Below are positions 7,435-55,300 of a DNA stretch of 55,300 nt, one piece after another (the first letter of the stretch is position 1; each line of letters opens with the position of its first letter). The DNA is from a virus (Duplodnaviria > Caudoviricetes). Location of the stretch: IMG/VR virus record IMGVR_UViG_3300014501_000022, positions 1 through 55,300 of that record, one strand, 5' to 3'. Below the pieces are notes generated by a model. It saw only the letters and a program-made list of their open reading frames with translations, did no database searches and was not told the origin of the DNA. The translations under genes and the position numbers were made by a program.

Positions 7435-7625
7435 TGCCAAGAATAGGTCTGCGGGCTTTAGGGGTTAACTTAGACTCTATTAAAGATATGACTATCAAGG
7501 AAGTATATGGTTCTGGTATAGTATCTGTTCCGGAATGTAACAAACGATTCTGGAAGCTCATAAAAGAAAAGAATCTAAAAGTAAAGCTACAAGTTACTAG
7601 TAATAAAAAGTCGCAGGCTGTGTAA
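7434..7625 (+). CDS. hypothetical protein
   Basis: 63-aa ORF with TAATG coupling. Confidence 0.55.
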   Translation: MPRIGLRALGVNLDSIKDMTIKEVYGSGIVSVPECNKRFWKLIKEKNLKVKLQVTSNKKSQAV

Positions 7626-7663
7626 AATTAATCATAGAGAAAATCTAGGAGGTAGTAAAGAGT

Positions 7664-8095
7664 ATGGGATTTAAAATTCAGAAGACGAAGGGTGTAGAAG
7701 ATGGAGTGTATGACGCAGTATTGTCAGACATTCAGAGTGCGAAGGGCGCGTTCGGTCCTTGCCTGAAGTTCTTCTTCCGCATCAATGGCGGCGCAAATGA
7801 CGGTACCGAAGTATCAATGATTCGCCCGGCGAAGCTCGTCCCAGGCAATAAGCTAGACAAGACGCTACAGAGTCTAGGTATCGATACATCTGCCGTCGAA
7901 GACGAATTAGATGTAGACGTTCTCTTGAATAAGAACGTTCAAGTTACTGTCGAGTCAAAGACTAGTGAGAAGGGTAAGGTGTTCGCTAACGTTACGGAAG
8001 TCCGCATTAGCAAGGCGAACAAGACGTCGTCAGCCCCAAAGGCTGCGGCTCCTGCACCAATCCGCGAAGTTGCTGTAGACGACGTACCCTTTTAA
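7664..8095 (+). CDS. single-stranded DNA-binding protein-like (OB fold)
   Basis: DGVYDAVLSDI...FANVTEV beta pattern, linker, acidic tail DDVPF; AGGAGG RBS; next to recA. Confidence 0.7.
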   Translation: MGFKIQKTKGVEDGVYDAVLSDIQSAKGAFGPCLKFFFRINGGANDGTEVSMIRPAKLVPGNKLDKTLQSLGIDTSAVEDELDVDVLLNKNVQVTVESKTSEKGKVFANVTEVRISKANKTSSAPKAAAPAPIREVAVDDVPF

Positions 8096-8110
8096 TAGGG
8101 ATTCAAAACA

Positions 8111-8138
8111 GAGACGGCGGGAGCGCTCCCGCCGTCTC
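8111..8138. repeat. perfect 28-bp palindrome
   Basis: GAGACGGCGGGAGC|GCTCCCGCCGTCTC is its own reverse complement. Confidence 0.9.
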
Positions 8139-8148
8139 ATATTGATTT

Positions 8149-9147
8149 ATGGAGACAAACGTGGCTGAGAGACAATCGCTAAAGGCAGCTTTAGCTAGCA
8201 TTGAGAAGGATTTGGGTACATCCGTTCAGATGTTAGGCGAGATGGCACCTTTGCAGGTAGAGGCGATCCGCTCTGGATCGTTTCTATTGGACGCGGCGAT
8301 TGGTGTAGGTGGTTATCCTCGCGGTCGCATCGTTGAGATCTTTGGTGCCCCGTCAGGCGGCAAGACGACCATGAGTCTACTTGCTATCGCTCAGGCACAG
8401 AAGGCCGGCGGCCGTGCCGCTTTCATCGACGTAGAACACGCGTTCAGTGTTGAGTATGCTCAGAGCATGGGCATTGATACCGATACGCTTTATTTCGTTC
8501 AGCCGGATTTCGGCGAGCAGGCGCTAGAGATTCTAGAGAGACTTACCGCGACAAATGAGTACGACATCATCGTTCTAGACTCTACAGCTGCGCTACTTCC
8601 TAAGGCGGAGATGGAAGAAGAAGTAGGTAAGCAGTTCATGGCGCTACAGGCTCGTATGCTTAGTCAGGCGATGAGAAAGTTAACTCCTGTTGTTGGTAAG
8701 ACAAAGACAGTTGTTATCTTCATCAACCAGACAAGACAGAACGTAGGCGTTATGTATGGCAACCCTACGACAACGCCTGGCGGAGAAGCATTGAAGTTCT
8801 ATAGTTCCGTACGTCTTAATGTTCGCAGAACTGGTGGATCAGATATCAAGGACGGTAAAGATATCCTAGGTCATCGAATTAATATTACGTGCGTCAAGAA
8901 TAAGGTAGCTCCTCCGCTGAAGTCAGCAGAGCTTACCTTCGTATATGGTAAGGGAATTGATACTGTCTTAGATATGCTAGAGTACGCAACAGACAAGGGC
9001 ATCCTAACAGTAACAGGCCACACCTATACACTTGGTACAAACAAATGGGTGGGACGTGATAACGCAATTAAAGCTATTCAAGAAGATCCATTGTTAACAC
9101 AACAGGTAGAGGAGCTGTTACTGGCCGCTACTTCCCCTAAGGCTTAA
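8149..9147 (+). CDS. recA: recombinase RecA
   Basis: GGYPRGRIVEIFG, GGKTT, FIDVEHA, QARMLSQAMRKL, FINQ, TPGGEALKFYSSVR, KNKVAPP. Confidence 0.97.
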   Translation: METNVAERQSLKAALASIEKDLGTSVQMLGEMAPLQVEAIRSGSFLLDAAIGVGGYPRGRIVEIFGAPSGGKTTMSLLAIAQAQKAGGRAAFIDVEHAFSVEYAQSMGIDTDTLYFVQPDFGEQALEILERLTATNEYDIIVLDSTAALLPKAEMEEEVGKQFMALQARMLSQAMRKLTPVVGKTKTVVIFINQTRQNVGVMYGNPTTTPGGEALKFYSSVRLNVRRTGGSDIKDGKDILGHRINITCVKNKVAPPLKSAELTFVYGKGIDTVLDMLEYATDKGILTVTGHTYTLGTNKWVGRDNAIKAIQEDPLLTQQVEELLLAATSPKA

Positions 9148-11230: not shown

Positions 11231-12231
11231 TGATCCATCTTAAAGAACTAGTAGTCAACGACTTCCAAACACACGTTAATACTAAGATAGAGCTGCACCC
11301 TAACTTCAATGTTATAGTGGGTTCTACGCGCTCGGGTAAGAGTAGTATTGTTCGTGCGCTAGACTTCTTGTTATATAATAACTGGTACGAAGACTATCAT
11401 CGCTTTGACGCTGTACGTCCAGCCGAGATCATAGCTAAGCTATCAACTGGCAAGACAGTTATTCGCCAGAAGAGTCTGAAGGTAAATAAGATCTTAATCC
11501 TAGAGGGAAAAGATACGCAACGCTTTGAGGCTTTTGGCACTACTCTACCCTCAGAGGTCACTGCCGCTTTAGGCATTATCCCAATTGATATCGGGGTAAA
11601 AGATCCCCTATTCGCAAACATCGCTAACCAAGACGACCCTCTTTTCTTATTGTACTCTGCTGGTACGGATAGAACGAGAGTACTCAGTCGCTTATCAGGT
11701 CTGCATTGGATAGATTATGCTCTTAGGGACCTCTCCAAAGATCGCCGAACGAAGTCTACAGAGGTACAGTTTCTGCAGGAGACTAACGAACAGTTACTGG
11801 AGAAGCTTCGCGCCTTTAAGAATATAAAAGATTATCGCGACACATTAGCGACAGAACAAGAGAGACTAACGAGGGTAAAGAAGGTTTCGACCTTACTACA
11901 AAAGAGTCGTGTATTATTAAGTAGAACTGCGTCGTGGAAGAAAGATTATCAGATGGTCCAGAATTTGAAGACCATTAATTTTCCTGTTGAAGTAGCTCGT
12001 TTGGAAAAGCTAATTTATCTACAGTCAGACATTTTGCAGCCGCTACGAGATACCATTCGTAAGTTAGCTACAAATAATCTGTCGATTAACAACACGCAAA
12101 CGTATCTACGAACGTTAGCAGAGACCAAAGCAAGCCTCGAAGCACAGATAGTTGAAGAGCTTACTAAGGTACCTACCTGCGAAGCATGCGGGCAAGAGAT
12201 CCGACAACACGTTAAGGGAGCACATGAGTAA
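11230..12231 (+). CDS. sbcC: SbcC/Rad50-like ATPase, N-terminal half
   Basis: NDFQTH, Walker [11 protein letters not shown]-loop ANQDDP, coiled coil, ends just after zinc hook CEACGQ. Confidence 0.85.
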
Positions 12232-51608: not shown

Positions 51609-52223
51609 CTAGGGATCTAACTCAGACTCCCAATACTTACTATCGATCAAGCGCTGCCAGCTTACGGGGATTGGTGCATGACCCGTAACGAGAGTACCGG
51701 CACCCTTCCATTCTGGCCGTTGAGGCTTAACACGTAACGTCATGCCAGCCTCTTCAGGCGTCTTGTCATCCTTCTTGGTGTTGCAAGGAATACAAGATAA
51801 TACAATGTTTGTCCAATTAGATACACCACCCCGAGACTTAGGAATTACGTGATCAAGATTCCATTCGTCTGGCTTAGTAAGCTTAGAGGGCTTAGAAAAC
51901 TTCTTGCCACAGTAAGCGCACTGGTAGTTGTAATGCTCTAGGATATTTCGACGAGAGAATTTAACCTCTTGTCTAGGTAGACGATCATACCGGGTTAACT
52001 GAATAACTTCCGGGATCGCAATTCGGAGGGAAGACGTATGGACGAAACCTCTCCCACTCTTCTCCATCATGGCAGACAACTCACACCAATCATTGAAGTC
52101 GTAGGTAACAAGGTTCTCGTCAACTGCTCTTGCGTGACCTGTGTATAGGAGAGTTAATGCCTTCTGCCAATCGGATATGTGGATTGCGTAGAAGTTTCGG
52201 TTTAAGACTAGCGTGTCAGCCAT
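51609..52223 (-). CDS. HNH endonuclease (McrA/COG1403-like)
   Basis: LVLN, FSRRNI, CAYCG, LDHVIPKSRGG...NIVLSCIPCNTKK. Confidence 0.9.
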   Translation of the reverse strand: MADTLVLNRNFYAIHISDWQKALTLLYTGHARAVDENLVTYDFNDWCELSAMMEKSGRGFVHTSSLRIAIPEVIQLTRYDRLPRQEVKFSRRNILEHYNYQCAYCGKKFSKPSKLTKPDEWNLDHVIPKSRGGVSNWTNIVLSCIPCNTKKDDKTPEEAGMTLRVKPQRPEWKGAGTLVTGHAPIPVSWQRLIDSKYWESELDP

Positions 52224-52304: not shown

Positions 52305-52378
52305 TGGAGCTACCACTCGGTATCGATCCGAGGTCGATCCCTTACCAAGGGATTACTCTGCCTTTGAGCTATGGTAGC
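52305..52378 (-). tRNA. tRNA-Thr(GGT)
   Basis: Acceptor GCTACCA/TGGTAGC, anticodon loop TTGGTAA, T loop ATCGATA, CCA. Confidence 0.85.
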
Positions 52379-52384
52379 AAAAAT

Positions 52385-52459
52385 TGGAGCTGCCATGGAG
52401 AGATGCACTCCACTCTGAGACTTACGAAGTCCCTGCATCGCTAACTATGCTTTGGCAGC
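52385..52459 (-). tRNA. tRNA-Thr(CGT)
   Basis: GCTGCCA/TGGCAGC, loop TTCGTAA, atypical T loop TGCATCT, CCA. Confidence 0.8.
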
Positions 52460-52461
52460 AT

Positions 52462-52535
52462 TGGTATCACCGGGTGGTATCGATCCACCGTCTAAGCCTT
52501 ATGAGAGCCCCATTCTACCTTTGAACTACGGTGAC
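52462..52535 (-). tRNA. tRNA-CAT (elongator Met or Ile2)
   Basis: GTCACCG/CGGTGAT, loop CTCATAA, CCA. Confidence 0.8.
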
Positions 52536-52542
52536 TACAAAT

Positions 52543-52618
52543 TGGTAGCGGGAGCTGGAATTGAACCAGCCTGGAAGAGCTTATGAGACTCCTGAGTTCA
52601 CCAGAACTCTACCCCGCA
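52543..52618 (-). tRNA. tRNA-CAT, initiator (fMet)-like
   Basis: TGCGGGG/TCCCGCT with 1:72 mismatch, loop CTCATAA, TTCAATT, CCA. Confidence 0.8.
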
Positions 52619-52622
52619 AATT

Positions 52623-52698
52623 TGGTACCCTAGGAAGGGGTTGCACCTTCACTGAACAGGTTTTGAAGCTGTTGCCTCTGCTATTGGGCTACTAGGGC
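52623..52698 (-). tRNA. tRNA-Leu(CAA), short variable loop
   Basis: GCCCTAG/CTAGGGT, loop TTCAAAA, T loop TGCAACC, CCA. Confidence 0.8.
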
Positions 52699-52837
52699 GA
52701 CTGTCTAAATACACACTTAGGCGCTTCGCGAAACATTCAACACAGTTATCTGTACTCAGGTTAAAGGTCTCAGCTAGGTCGTATAAGAGAGAACCCATCG
52801 TCATTGGATTCACTATACAACAAAGTGCCTTTGTCAT
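52649..52837 (-). CDS. small Cys-containing hypothetical protein (3' end overlaps tRNA-Leu)
   Basis: ATGA coupling with upstream ORF; overlap with tRNA lowers confidence. Confidence 0.4.
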   Translation of the reverse strand: MTKALCCIVNPMTMGSLLYDLAETFNLSTDNCVECFAKRLSVYLDSRPSSPIAEATASKPVQ

Positions 52838-53031
52838 TTCTTCTTTATGTGTCTTGGGTTATCTTTCTTACCGCAAGGATACCCGCACTTCTTACAATGG
52901 CGACTCGATACAGCAAAGGCACCGATCATGGAGTCATCGATAAAGTCCCAGTCGAGAGTTTCCATTACCTTCTTTGGAACCTTCTTATACTTCCCTCGTA
53001 CGCCTTTACTGAAGTCGTACTCTTTCTTCAT
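52834..53031 (-). CDS. BrnA-like antitoxin N-terminal motif protein
   Basis: MKKEYDFSKGVRGKY resembles N-termini of BrnA/CopG-type antitoxins; C-terminal CKKC. Confidence 0.6.
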   Translation of the reverse strand: MKKEYDFSKGVRGKYKKVPKKVMETLDWDFIDDSMIGAFAVSSRHCKKCGYPCGKKDNPRHIKKK

Positions 53032-53032
53032 A

Positions 53033-53108
53033 TGGTGCCTATGGTAGGATTTGAACCTACACTGGACGGCTTCTTAGACCGCTTCCTCTGCCGTTGGGAT
53101 ACATAGGC
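53033..53108 (-). tRNA. tRNA-Leu(AAG), short variable loop
   Basis: GCCTATG/CATAGGC, stem GCGGT/GCCGT, loop CTAAGAA, TTCAAAT, CCA. Confidence 0.85.
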
Positions 53109-53114
53109 TTAAAT

Positions 53115-53188
53115 TGGTGCTCTAGGAAGGAATCGAACCTTCACGGTCACAATGTCAATGTGATGCCCTACCACTAGGCGACTGGAGC
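53115..53188 (-). tRNA. tRNA-Val(GAC)
   Basis: GCTCCAG/CTAGAGC, loop TTGACAT, TTCGATT, CCA. Confidence 0.85.
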
Positions 53189-53379
53189 TAATATATCTCT
53201 TGTTTCGGACCACATCGCGTAAGAAGAAAGCCCATGATCTTTCGATCACTTCTCAAACAATAGTCGTCCCAATCGTCTTGGAACTTCCACTTCTTGGTAC
53301 ATCTATCACAATAGGTCCAATCATCTTTCTTCTTCCAATCGTGATAAAGAATCTTACACAAGTCCTTCTCAAACTTCAT
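53188..53379 (-). CDS. small DUF1660-like Cys/His protein
   Basis: LCKILYHDW...CDRC. Confidence 0.6.
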   Translation of the reverse strand: MKFEKDLCKILYHDWKKKDDWTYCDRCTKKWKFQDDWDDYCLRSDRKIMGFLLTRCGPKQEIY

Positions 53380-53380
53380 A

Positions 53381-53455
53381 TGGTGCCCTTAGCAGGAGTC
53401 GAACCCGCATCTCAGAGGTAGAAGCTCCGCGCTCTGGCCATTGAGCTATAAGGGC
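53381..53455 (-). tRNA. tRNA-Arg(TCT)
   Basis: GCCCTTA/TAAGGGC, loop CTTCTAC, TTCGACT, CCA. Confidence 0.9.
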
Positions 53456-53460
53456 TAAAT

Positions 53461-53535
53461 TGGAGCCGCCACCCGGACTCGCGCCGGACTATCACGCTTA
53501 CAAGGCGTGCGCATCGCTACCTATGCTTTGGCGGC
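53461..53535 (-). tRNA. tRNA-Thr(TGT)
   Basis: GCCGCCA/TGGCGGC, loop CTTGTAA, atypical T loop CGCGAGT, CCA. Confidence 0.82.
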
Positions 53536-53540
53536 ATATA

Positions 53541-53613
53541 TGCCTTCGGTCGGAATTGAACCGACATGGACGGGAGTTTAGAGTTCCCCGCTTTGCCATT
53601 AAGCTACGAAGGC
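53541..53613 (-). tRNA. amber suppressor tRNA (anticodon CTA), no encoded CCA
   Basis: GCCTTCG/CGAAGGC, D arm GCTT-AATGGCA-AAGC, GGGAA-CTCTAAA-CTCCC, GTCGG-TTCAATT-CCGAC. Confidence 0.82.
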
Positions 53614-53619
53614 TAATTG

Positions 53620-54168
53620 TTACTTTCTTAAGGCACTAAAAATTCTCTTGGCTATCGTCCAAGGGCTGTATTGCCATTCACCATTGATCATACCTTCAAC
53701 CATTCCTGGCAAAGCTTCAGTACATAGACGACAGTGTTCGTACGACAGTCCGTGCATTCCACACTGAGCTATCGGTCCCATGTTGACTTTCCAACCGTCT
53801 GAGGCGCCGGGCCTTACTGCGGAGTAACTGTAACCTCTTGTTGAGGGACACTTCGCGTACTCAGTGAAATGTCTTTCTGGACTACAAATTGTTTTCTCGA
53901 ATACCTCATACACCCAAGGATCGCCGCTTGCATTCTTCTGCCATGATCTCTTTAGATCGTAGCCGCACCAGCAATGCGTATGTATCCCGTATATGTTGTA
54001 TAGTCTCTTTACTTCTTGTCGCTCGCGACCGTGCTTCTGACATCCTATCAAACGTGGTCCGCCCGACGCCGTATATCCTCCGTCGTTCAACGTACAAAGA
54101 ATATGTTTCCTTGCAGCGATACACGGAAGGCTAATTAGTTCTTCCTACGACTCTTCTTTCTATAACAT
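53620..54168 (-). CDS. Cys/His-rich hypothetical protein; likely N-terminus contains two in-frame TAG codons
   Basis: Track ORF 53620-54090 extends in frame to TAG 54147-54145, TAG 54162-54160 and an ATG at 54168 with GGAG RBS; true start unresolved. Confidence 0.55.
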
Positions 54169-54342
54169 TTTATCTCCATTACCGTAAGTTGGCTTCTTCG
54201 GGTCTATTGCCCAGTGGTGCCCTTTGCTTTCAGTATAAGGACATTCACGCGGCTGTGCCCTTGCAGGCCAGCACTTGTAACAACACTTCGTCTTACAAAG
54301 CTTACACCAGCAATATTCGTTGATAACGCAACAAATGTTCAT
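54160..54342 (-). CDS. small Cys-rich protein (TAG stop, in frame with downstream ORF)
   Basis: CC...CWCKLC...CCYKC; ATG 5 nt after TATAAT. Confidence 0.6.
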   Translation of the reverse strand: MNICCVINEYCWCKLCKTKCCYKCWPARAQPRECPYTESKGHHWAIDPKKPTYGNGDKML

Positions 54343-54361
54343 TACTGATTATACACTAAAT

Positions 54362-54437
54362 TGGTAGCCTAGGAGAGGGTTGCACTCTCACTGTACGGGT
54401 TTTAAAGCCGCTGCCTCTGCTATTGGGCTACTAGGCC
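54362..54437 (-). tRNA. tRNA-Leu(TAA), short variable loop
   Basis: GGCCTAG/CTAGGCT, loop TTTAAAA, T loop TGCAACC, CCA; paralogue of Leu(CAA). Confidence 0.8.
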
Positions 54438-54595
54438 GTCAAATCGATTGGTCGCTCTATGCAGTATGAAGAACCTGTGTAAGCGTTCTGTTCAATCCAG
54501 TCCTTATCTGCTTTGTAACAATCGACACAGTACTCATACTTCATACCATCAACTGTCACAAATACTACCGGATGAACCTGACAACAGAGTCTCAT
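54431..54595 (-). CDS. small Cys-containing protein (54 aa, not in ORF track)
   Basis: MRLCCQVH...YCVDC...; TAG stop overlaps the tRNA-Leu 5' end. Confidence 0.5.
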   Translation of the reverse strand: MRLCCQVHPVVFVTVDGMKYEYCVDCYKADKDWIEQNAYTGSSYCIERPIDLTA

Positions 54596-54597
54596 AT

Positions 54598-54672
54598 TGG
54601 AGCACCAGGGGAGAATCGAACTCCCTCATGAAAGTTTTGCAGACTCTCAGCTTCCCACTTGCCTACTGGTGC
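54598..54672 (-). tRNA. tRNA-Cys(GCA)
   Basis: GCACCAG/CTGGTGC, loop CTGCAAA, U73, CCA. Confidence 0.88.
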
Positions 54673-54673
54673 A

Positions 54674-54868
54674 TTATTGGCTTGGCAAGTCAGGGTAACA
54701 AGCTATACAATACTTCTTTACGTCGGTACAATAGTTCGTATAAGCTCCGACATGCAGCGTTGTGTCGTCGCAACCCGGATAAGTACACTGGTGGTAATAT
54801 CCTAATAAACCTCTATACGCATTACCCCACTTGTGTCCATTTACGAGGCACGGTAAAGATCTATTCAT
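54674..54868 (-). CDS. small DUF1660-like Cys/His protein
   Basis: SLPCLVNGHKW...CTYPGC...CIAC. Confidence 0.55.
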   Translation of the reverse strand: MNRSLPCLVNGHKWGNAYRGLLGYYHQCTYPGCDDTTLHVGAYTNYCTDVKKYCIACYPDLPSQ

Positions 54869-55031
54869 ATGTTAGGATTGTCGTACCATAATCGACACCC
54901 GACAACGTCTGGAATGCTCCGCACTTACGACGACAGTTTCTATACTTCGTAGGGAACCCTTTCTTTACTTTCGAAAGGATAAACTCACCCCAATCATGCC
55001 CTAATATCTTACACAGGTTCTTTAGAAACAT
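54861..55031 (-). CDS. small DUF1660-like Cys/His protein (56 aa, not in ORF track)
   Basis: MFLKNLCKILGHDW...CRRKC. Confidence 0.6.
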   Translation of the reverse strand: MFLKNLCKILGHDWGEFILSKVKKGFPTKYRNCRRKCGAFQTLSGVDYGTTILTYE

Positions 55032-55035
55032 AAAC

Positions 55036-55109
55036 TGGCGGGGGCTCTAGGAATCGAACCCAGGTTAACGGTTTTGGAGACCGCAATTCTGCCACTGAAC
55101 TAAACCCCC
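55036..55109 (-). tRNA. tRNA-Trp(CCA)
   Basis: GGGGGTT/AGCCCCC, loop CTCCAAA, G73, CCA. Confidence 0.9.
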
Positions 55110-55116
55110 ATAAATC

Positions 55117-55204
55117 TGGCGGAAGCTACAGGATTCGAACCTGTGGAGCTGTTACACCCTTCGGTTTTCAAGACCGACGCCTTAAACCACTCGGCCAAAC
55201 TTCC
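55117..55204 (-). tRNA. tRNA-Ser(TGA)
   Basis: GGAAGTT/AGCTTCC, loop CTTGAAA, long variable arm, G73, CCA. Confidence 0.92.
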
Positions 55205-55300
55205 AAATCAATTGTAGTAGTGCTGACCTTGTTTTTAACCCCACATCCGCGTGCTGGTCCCATTTTAGCTAGCCTTATTGGGACTTCTCGAGTTACGAAG

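Follow-up and report, generated by a model that had tools for sequence, protein, structure and literature searches.

A tRNA array of an uncultured phage in which small genes begin directly behind tRNAs and may be expressed by tRNA punctuation

We analyzed the tRNA array at the right end of a 55,300-nt stretch of phage DNA (the window), which is the entire 55.3-kb IMG/VR virus record IMGVR_UViG_3300014501_000022 (Duplodnaviria; Caudoviricetes). The window is a fragment, estimated by CheckV at approximately 26% of the genome, of a phage of approximately 210 kb; its G+C content is approximately 45%, and its plus strand carries a DNA polymerase, a UvsX-like recombinase, a ribonucleotide reductase, a QueE-like enzyme, and large structural genes. 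The array (52305–55204) lies on the minus strand, runs off the contig end on one side, is closed by an HNH endonuclease gene on the other, and contains 14 tRNAs and eight small open reading frames (ORFs) besides the HNH gene. Since all of these features are on the minus strand, transcription would run from 55204 to 52305. Thirteen tRNAs were called by ARAGORN, and 12 of those 13 were detected by Rfam, which missed tRNA-Thr(cgt) (52385–52459). At four of the five tRNA-to-gene junctions in the window, a small ORF starts with an ATG located 1–5 nt past the tRNA end, a layout that we term flush. The four CCA-to-ATG junctions had been reported in a sequence-only reading of this DNA and were exact when the minus strand was read: CCA-T-ATG with the ATG at 53031 and at 53379, CCA-AT-ATG at 54595, and CCA-GTTT-ATG at 55031. 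The CCA of tRNA-Leu(aag), for example, occupies 53035–53033 and is followed by a single T and then by the ATG at 53031.

In the direction of transcription, the first tRNA on the contig is tRNA-Ser(tga) (55117–55204; ARAGORN; Rfam, 62.7 bits), followed by tRNA-Trp(cca) (55036–55109), which, like the other tRNAs of this paragraph, was called by both ARAGORN and Rfam. It ends in CCA-GTTT-ATG, and the ATG 4 nt past the CCA opens ORF56 (54861–55031; 56 aa), a small zinc-finger-like protein with an LCKILGHDW motif that was assigned to Family 2 (see below) by family alignment. ORF64 (54674–54868), which is Family 2-like (LPCLVNGHKW), shares 8 nt with ORF56 and terminates in a TAA located 1 nt ahead of tRNA-Cys(gca) (54598–54672). 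This tRNA ends in CCA-AT-ATG, where the ATG 2 nt past the CCA starts ORF54 (54431–54595; 54 aa; Family 1, MRLCCQV...), whose TAG forms nucleotides 5–7 of tRNA-Leu(taa) (54362–54437). ORF60 (54160–54342; Family 1) begins 19 nt past the CCA of tRNA-Leu(taa) and is the sole non-flush case in the window. Its junction (54343–54361) contains a 15-nt insert that includes a perfect TATAAT, whose end lies 5 nt ahead of the ATG; this is a single case with no −35 element and was unlisted by the promoter scan, and the position of the hexamer would suit a transcription start at or beside the ATG. Further along, tRNA-Arg(tct) (53381–53455) ends in CCA-T-ATG, with the ATG of ORF63 (53188–53379; 63 aa; Family 2) 1 nt past the CCA, and the TAG of ORF63 shares its G with G1 of tRNA-Val(gac) (53115–53188). 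The same CCA-T-ATG arrangement joins tRNA-Leu(aag) (53033–53108) to ORF65 (52834–53031; 65 aa), 1 nt past the CCA. ORF62 (52649–52837) has a Family 1 N-terminus (MTKALCCIVNP), overlaps ORF65 through an ATGA, and over its final 50 nt coincides with the 5′ half of tRNA-Leu(caa).

No cultured phage close to the window was found; the identity of its DNA polymerase to the polymerases of Bacillus SPO1-like phages does not exceed 33%. Through the same protein we reached a complete relative, G001 (210,348 bp with terminal repeats; 86% identity), which has 39 tRNA matches, most of them within one 12.7-kb array (array sequence L046). The third relative, L050 (a metagenome contig of 31.6 kb; 83% identity), was reached through a conserved 113-aa protein whose gene lies behind the array. 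L052 is identical in sequence to G001 and was left out of the counts; L048, a distant match with no tRNAs, was rejected as a relative array. The relatives share the tRNA order Ser(tga), Trp, Cys, Leu(taa), Thr(tgt), Arg(tct), Val(gac), Leu(aag), Leu(caa), Met, Thr(ggt), and HNH. They carry at least 20 more tRNAs upstream of Ser(tga), and the array of the window probably continues past the contig end. Outside these relatives, blastn of the array against phages returned single tRNAs only (at most 4% coverage), no close relatives of ORF156 (see below) or of an 828-aa protein were found in viral contigs, and neither ORF63 nor ORF156 had a tblastn match among 50,697 phage records.

To count junctions, the ARAGORN and Rfam tRNA calls were merged and every tRNA-to-non-tRNA junction with a gap of at least 60 nt was included. 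An ATG was located 1–5 nt past the tRNA end at 24 of 38 junctions (4/5 in the window, 12/21 in G001, and 8/12 in L050), and 23 of these ATGs open 48–123 codons, with the remaining one opening 26. The spacers measure 1 nt (five junctions), 2 nt (two), 3 nt (five), 4 nt (ten), and 5 nt (two), and the nucleotide at −1 of the ATG is T in 24/24. The scan looked for ATG only, which is thus the start codon of all 24; the junction sequences inspected contained no credible flush ORF with a GTG or TTG start. These values indicate that the CCA-to-ATG spacing is conserved in related phage tRNA arrays, a check that the sequence-only reading had proposed. Isolated tRNAs elsewhere in G001 have the flush layout in two to three of four cases.

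At random positions in these sequences, an ATG within 1–5 nt that opens at least 48 codons occurs in 0.7–3.2%, against which the observed 23/38 has a binomial p of ~4e-25. As a viral control, contigs were scanned for a tRNA T-arm with CCA-N1-4-ATG, and 80 unrelated loci were returned; the ATG opens at least 50 codons at 8 of 88 of these pattern-selected sites. Among 300 control junctions unselected by pattern, four were flush (Fisher p = 9e-22 vs 23/38). These results confirm that the flush layout is real, robust, conserved, and far beyond chance, and that it is rare at other viral junctions.

The flush layout survives gene turnover. Behind tRNA-Trp, each of the three phages has a different gene, and each of these genes is flush; the same gene family is found behind tRNA-Ile(gat) in G001 and behind tRNA-Arg(tcg) in L050, flush in both. 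The ORF54 orthologue of L050 (6824–7027) is flush at +1, and the orthologues of ORF60 in L050 and G001 start with a flush CCA-ATTT-ATG. A DNA contig represents a fourth, diverged relative, in which ORF65 has 2 codons in place of its first 15, with the reading frame kept and the ATG once more 2 nt past the CCA.

The same data admit the explanation that cassette turnover, through recombination or homing-endonuclease exchange at tRNA borders, together with a deletion bias, left the flush layout as a by-product; the genes would then have no dedicated initiation mechanism and would be translated weakly, helped by an A/U-rich context. The array does appear to behave like a cassette array with tRNAs as borders, since the intervening genes vary among the three phages despite the shared tRNA order: the Trp–Cys interval holds three different gene sets, Arg(tct)–Val holds zero, one, or two genes, Leu(aag)–Leu(caa) holds zero or two, and the ORF62 body (52699–52837) is missing from one relative. 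Like the arrays of T5 and T4, this one encloses HNH endonuclease genes (PMC2330249, in part). The 3′ ends of the ORFs are sloppy, with stops supplied by tRNA nucleotides 5–7 or 8–10 or located 50 nt inside a tRNA, and many ordinary genes of the phage also lack a Shine-Dalgarno (SD) sequence. Moreover, ATTT followed by A is a general spacer between elements of the array, so that an ATTT-ATG junction would need only a "TG" to be added. Against such an origin, extreme compaction is not seen, as the gaps in the array measure 60–1400 nt, and the distances are bimodal and form no continuum, with genes starting either at most 5 nt or 19–26 nt behind tRNAs; two of the three spaced cases have a canonical SD sequence, both in G001 (AGGAG behind tRNA-Tyr and GAGGAG behind tRNA-Arg(cct)), and the third, ORF60, has none. 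The return to a flush ATG after the in-frame remodelling of the ORF65 N-terminus, the second codon AAA, AAG, or AGA in 13/21 flush ORFs (a count inflated by paralogy), and the lack of the layout in other viral tRNA arrays with interspersed genes also argue against a by-product, which we regard as somewhat unlikely.

Across the three phages, the small ORFs fall into two paralogous Cys-rich families with invariant Cys positions. Family 1 (M-[KR]-L-C-C-x-[VI]-N-P, then C-x2-C ... C-x2-C) has 14 members including ORF54, ORF60, and ORF62, and Family 2 (L-C-K-I-L-G-H-D-W, then C-x2-C) has 10 members including ORF56, ORF63, and ORF64. The motif M-K-L-C-C is found at the N-terminus of the 14 Family 1 paralogues, and as this motif lies two residues behind the ATG, it fixes the position of the start. 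Flush ORFs of the relatives match DUF7296 behind tRNA-Lys (E 1e-36) and Pyr_excise, a pyrimidine-dimer glycosylase, behind tRNA-Thr (E 3e-16); position 1 of the Pfam profile is residue 1 in two flush ORFs of the relatives. The ratio of nonsynonymous to synonymous substitution rates (dN/dS) was 0.33–0.39 in the three small-ORF pairs with unsaturated dS and 0.13 for the HNH gene; dS was saturated in 7/11 pairs. The value of 0.33 was obtained for ORF63 against its G001 counterpart (11287–11487), whose TAG likewise shares the G of tRNA-Val. ORF56 and G001 8052–8216 are 74% identical in amino acids and 68% identical in nucleotides, with dS saturated. These results show that the small ORFs are real genes whose flush ATGs are the true N-termini, and they contradict the possibility, named in the sequence-only reading as refuting its claim, that the ORFs are unconserved.

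The reverse case, in which the small ORFs are untranslated, chance open frames in spacers, could draw on the database searches. The eight small ORFs of the window matched no Pfam or PHROGs family at E ≤0.001 (the only weak matches were phrog_2670 at 0.02 and phrog_4585 at 0.009), and the two tested by tblastn had no counterpart in the phage records. The Family 1 profile gave four matches among 5.8 billion proteins, and a degenerate DNA pattern for flush Family 1 genes matched G001 only; the two families are nearly confined to this clade. Scores in the ESM Atlas did not exceed 0.89 and led to small viral zinc-finger proteins and DUF1660, which serve as functional leads only and are no proof. 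The invariant Cys residues, the dN/dS values, the in-frame indel, the Pfam matches of the flush ORFs in relatives, and the binomial p value make chance open frames extremely improbable.

The sequence-only reading had also claimed that the flush junctions leave no room for an SD sequence outside the tRNA, and this was borne out: with spacers of 1–5 nt, 20/21 flush ORFs lack an anti-SD match of ≤−6 kcal/mol. Within 20 nt, such a match was found for 1/21 flush ORFs, and the mean was −2.8 kcal/mol compared with −2.7 at random positions. The lone strong match is a GGAGG inside a tRNA-Thr of G001 (−12.1 kcal/mol), and an SD sequence inside the tRNA was accordingly rejected as a general rule. A promoter inside the 3′ part of the tRNA was rejected as well, as no −10-like hexamer was found at the right distance and the promoter scan remained at the chance level (8 promoter-like sites in the array vs 6.0 ± 2.5 expected by chance; terminator-like sites, 4 vs 3.5 ± 2.3). 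Folding of the tRNAs with 40 nt of the following sequence was uninformative (z-scores of −1.15 to +0.25).

The sequence behind the tRNAs follows a common pattern. CCA is encoded by 77/87 tRNAs, and the trailer behind it reads N-T-T-T regardless of whether a tRNA or an ORF comes next, with T at +2 in 61/76 and at +3 in 70/75; the forms are A-TTT, GA-TTT, C-TTT, and TTT. In the group of five adjacent tRNAs at 52305–52698, four of the five trailers are A/T-rich with a T-run (AATT, ATTTGTA, ATTTTT, and, behind Thr(ggt), ATTT), and the spacer between Met and Thr(cgt) is the 2-nt AT. The consensus of RNase E is described as RN|WUU with a ruler uridine at +2 (PMC5222698, in the part cited), and an RNase E cut 1–3 nt downstream of encoded CCA is described in a portion of PMC2190699. 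The trailers fit both the motif and the position. By this rule, CCA-A|UUU-AUG yields a 3-nt leader and CCA-U|AUG yields none.

From these features we infer the following course of expression. The array would be transcribed as a long tRNA–mRNA precursor, and a host endonuclease of tRNA 3′ maturation, RNase E or an enzyme of similar preference, would cut in the short U-rich N-U-U-U trailer behind the CCA, a step without which the tRNA could not become functional. Since the AUG lies directly behind the trailer, the cut would release an mRNA with a 5′-monophosphate and a leader of 0–4 nt, which would be translated in a leaderless, SD-independent mode, and expression of the small Cys-rich proteins would thereby be tied to tRNA maturation. 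According to the sections of PMC9031893 used here, leaderless translation depends on a 5′ phosphate and on an AUG near the end of the RNA; an RNase E product carries such a phosphate.

On the 3′ side, the three stop contacts described in the sequence-only reading were found exactly as given: the TAG at 53190–53188 shares G1 of tRNA-Val, the TAG at 54433–54431 is nucleotides 5–7 of tRNA-Leu(taa), and 1 nt separates tRNA-Cys (54672) from the TAA that ends at 54674. Among the 31 ORFs that have a tRNA next, the stop is located 0–12 nt before the tRNA in 13, overlaps or lies inside it in 13, and is farther away in five. The 13 overlapping stops include three of the form TA|G1, four formed by the tRNA's own U8-A9-G10, and two located 50 nt inside the tRNA; the stop codons are complete in the DNA. 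ORF62 and ORF67 of L050 (6978–7027) share their last 16 residues (RPS-P-AE-A--KPV-) because both translate the 5′ half of tRNA-Leu. Excision of the downstream tRNA by RNase P would remove the stops inside it, so translation must end before the cut, or the protein is lost. The 3′ side shows no true punctuation: the ORFs run up to or into the next tRNA, and termination would have to precede RNase P removal. Stops abutting tRNAs are already seen in T5; this part of the finding is thus not new, and only the flush starts are unusual.

Twenty metagenome sequencing runs from peat, permafrost, and soil contain portions of the stretch; two of them are RNA libraries, both peat metatranscriptomes, with 7–8% of the words. 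The RNA data are assembled Logan contigs whose ends are not RNA ends, which carry no strand or level, which may derive from DNA, and whose uncovered parts are no evidence. RNA-library contigs identical to the window cover 54609–54844 (tRNA-Cys and ORF64), 54415–54582 (ORF54 and the start of tRNA-Leu), and 52409–52559 (three tRNAs). Among the contigs listed, including two variant contigs, three ORF-to-tRNA junctions are bridged and 0/4 CCA-to-ATG junctions are. The RNA-library contigs, which come from two studies, break off at 54609, 11 nt short of the 3′ end of tRNA-Cys, and resume at 54582, 13 nt past the ATG of ORF54, and a DNA contig spans this gap. This pattern gives no more than a weak hint of processing.

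The stops inside tRNAs and the bridged ORF-to-tRNA junctions bear on an alternative in which initiation occurs on an uncut tRNA–mRNA chimera. The attached tRNA, trimmed by RNase P, would serve as a 5′ stabiliser and/or as a ribosome standby or positioning element, and exonucleases would later destroy the mRNA part. Translation of unprocessed RNA is already demanded on the 3′ side by the 13/31 stops inside or overlapping the next tRNA. The AUG lies 5–9 nt from the last acceptor-stem base pair (N73, CCA, and the 1–5-nt spacer), which is the usual SD-to-AUG spacing; 3/4 window junctions are predicted to keep the acceptor stem with the AUG unpaired, and the one flush ORF with GGAGG inside the tRNA would suit such a chimera. 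With 5 nt between it and the AUG, a folded tRNA should, however, clash with the 30S platform, and 20/21 flush ORFs have no SD sequence that an attached tRNA could present. The tRNA-to-tRNA junctions have the same trailer motif, which argues for a cut there, and the T5 spacers with room for an SD sequence show how SD-led genes behind tRNAs look. We consider initiation on the uncut chimera unlikely. In a bolder version, the acceptor-stem helix itself would act as a surrogate SD duplex that docks on the 30S platform and places the AUG, allowing SD-free initiation on tRNA–mRNA chimeras with no cut, and the tRNAs would be decoders, cassette borders, and initiation signals at once; this version is very improbable.

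Release of near-leaderless mRNAs by tRNA 3′ processing, with 0–4-nt leaders, a 5′-monophosphate, and translation without an SD sequence, is the reading that we hold tentatively, as a real possibility just short of probable. The part of the sequence-only reading that derived near-leaderless mRNAs from tRNA excision gains from the true N-termini, the single SD match among 21 flush ORFs, the N-U-U-U trailer, and the layout kept through gene replacement; it does not extend to the 3′ side, where excision would delete stops. Several points weigh against the reading as a whole. Full excision would turn the 13/31 ORFs with stops in the next tRNA into non-stop mRNAs. Among the ordinary genes of the window (long ORFs), many of which are ATGA-coupled, 13/44 reach −6 kcal/mol, which is no significant difference from the flush ORFs (p = 0.14); with this contrast, the lack of an SD sequence alone proves little. 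The 38 junctions are partly orthologous and not independent, representing approximately 19–21 distinct tRNA/gene combinations, and 14/38 are non-flush. RNase E/G and RNase P RNA were not found encoded in the window or G001, and no host could be assigned: a ribonucleotide reductase scan of 185,579 genomes gave at most 40% identity in mixed phyla and no host clue. The proposed mechanism, which is plausible, would require a host that has such an RNase E-type enzyme and translates leaderless mRNAs well. Finally, the predicted 3-nt leader in UUU-AUG should lower leaderless translation (PMC9031893, in the sections used).

The remaining features of the array are as follows, those of the window all on the minus strand. 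A partial raiA-like structured RNA (55214–55300; Rfam RF03072, 24.5 bits, model positions 108–209, below the gathering score) is represented by its 3′ half only and is cut by the contig end. The tRNA array of G001 contains a raiA-motif-like RNA (L046 7489–7809) with a full-length match (61.2 bits, E 7e-13; gathering score, 101.3), and the two may be a divergent phage-borne raiA RNA. G001 also has a CyVA-1-like RNA match (L046 10581–10657; 37.7 bits, gathering score 41.4). Behind ORF60 lies a member of the ORF156 family (53620–54135), whose TAA ends 6 nt before the next tRNA. The family is conserved from just past the upstream stop (..LISLPC..), before the first ATG, GTG, or TTG in the window (54130–54144; L046 8939–8953), and the ATT at 54135, common to both phages, may be a non-canonical start.

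The next tRNA (53541–53613; ARAGORN; Rfam, 57.1 bits) has the anticodon CUA, is of the amber-suppressor type (labelled 'Pyl' by ARAGORN), and has no encoded CCA; such a tRNA is present in the window and in L050 (7479–7549) and absent from G001. TAG is the stop of 13/31 array ORFs, several of them inside tRNAs; wholesale recoding of TAG is unlikely because the long plus-strand genes are intact under code 11. The tRNA with anticodon CUA is followed by a non-canonical Thr(UGU)-like cloverleaf ending in CCA-ATTTA (53461–53535), which was missed by ARAGORN and Rfam and was recognized by folding and by alignment with tRNA-Thr(tgt) of G001 and the L050 copy. This tRNA lacks a canonical T-loop, and Thr(cgt) was called by ARAGORN only; these two odd Thr tRNAs (53461–53535 and 52385–52459; in L050, ~7553–7630) have in common an unusual D-arm region, AGCAUAG-UAGCGAUGC. 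In L050, an ORF-free stretch of ~115 nt (7631–7747) lies behind the odd Thr tRNA.

The five adjacent tRNAs at 52305–52698 are Leu(caa), Met, Met, Thr(cgt), and Thr(ggt), with spacers of 2–7 nt (ARAGORN; all but Thr(cgt) also in Rfam). The HNH endonuclease gene that closes the array (51609–52223; Pfam PF01844, E 1.7e-12; PHROG HNH families) has the canonical SD sequence AGGAG. The G001 array includes genes for an Hsp20, a pyrimidine-dimer DNA glycosylase, and a DUF7574 protein (L046 4242–4703, 9567–9938, and 12542–12865), which indicates that the array hosts ordinary accessory genes besides the small Cys-rich families. Elsewhere in G001 (C1:55778–56155; L173), a 460-aa ORF matches the PolyA_pol family (CCA-adding enzyme or poly(A) polymerase; E 1.7e-20).

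In animal mitochondria, punctuation of the transcripts by tRNAs was reportedly established by Ojala, Montoya and Attardi in 1981. As in mitochondria, the coding RNAs of the array abut same-strand tRNAs and leave no room for a 5′ untranslated region, the nucleases of tRNA maturation are expected to set the mRNA 5′ end, and translation would by analogy be leaderless or nearly so. Unlike mitochondria, the array belongs to a bacterial virus that would use host enzymes, and since its tRNAs encode CCA followed by a U-rich trailer, the expected cut is of the RNase E type, not of the RNase Z type. The stops are not completed by polyadenylation, as they are complete in the DNA, and flush junctions (24/38) are intermixed with SD-led genes. 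The mitochondrial resemblance claimed in the sequence-only reading thus applies to the 5′ side, with its ATGs at 1–5 nt, and fails on the 3′ side, where stops overlap the next tRNA or lie up to 50 nt inside it.

Among phages, the array is similar to the tRNA region of T5 (NC_005859), in which same-strand tRNAs are interspersed with small hypothetical ORFs, HNH genes, and stable RNAs, and in which ORF stops lie 0–10 nt before the next tRNA (5, 9, 4, 0, and 10) or overlap it by 6–24 nt (nine junctions). In contrast to the 1–5 nt of the array, the T5 spacers measure 13–74 nt at 13/13 tRNA-to-coding-sequence junctions (13–25 nt at 11 of them), which leaves room for an SD sequence. The tRNA cluster of T4 (NC_000866) likewise encloses a homing endonuclease gene, segB, whose stop lies 5 nt before tRNA-Arg, and non-tRNA RNAs (stable RNAs C and D) are processed from the same precursor (PMC2330249, in part); it differs in having one ORF, which starts 41 nt past tRNA-Ile. 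The array is built like the T5 tRNA region without the T5 spacer and would work, if at all, like mitochondrial punctuation at the 5′ side only. In the literature searched, outside which fall the 1980s T5 sequence papers and supplements, we found no description of flush tRNA–ORF junctions in phages.

Release of a functional RNA from a tRNA 3′ trailer by RNase E is known for 3′ETS-leuZ of E. coli and Salmonella, which, unlike the array transcripts, is a small-RNA sponge and not an mRNA and is cut 15 nt downstream of the tRNA, according to the part of PMC5222698 cited above. The proposed array RNAs would resemble leaderless mRNAs in having the AUG at or next to the 5′ end, no SD sequence, and a need for AUG and a 5′ phosphate (PMC9031893; for Deinococcus deserti, PMC4007540; both in part). 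They would differ in the origin of the 5′ end, which in the known leaderless mRNAs covered by those sections of PMC9031893 arises from transcription initiation and here would arise from RNA processing. According to the same sections, an earlier proposal of leaderless mRNAs generated by MazF was not reproduced.

Gene callers that depend on ribosome-binding sites are likely to overlook genes of this kind in phage tRNA arrays or to place their starts wrongly, and the CCA-(N)UUU-AUG junction is a compact candidate design for SD-free polycistronic expression. If the proposed mechanism is correct, the array would be a clear case of leaderless mRNAs made by processing, an idea contested since the MazF result was not reproduced (PMC9031893, in the sections used). 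It would also be the first tRNA-punctuation system for mRNAs outside organelles, and tRNA punctuation would be no organelle speciality, with a natural example in a bacterial virus. Phage tRNA arrays of this kind hold families of small Cys-rich proteins, which under the proposed mechanism would be expressed together with the tRNAs.

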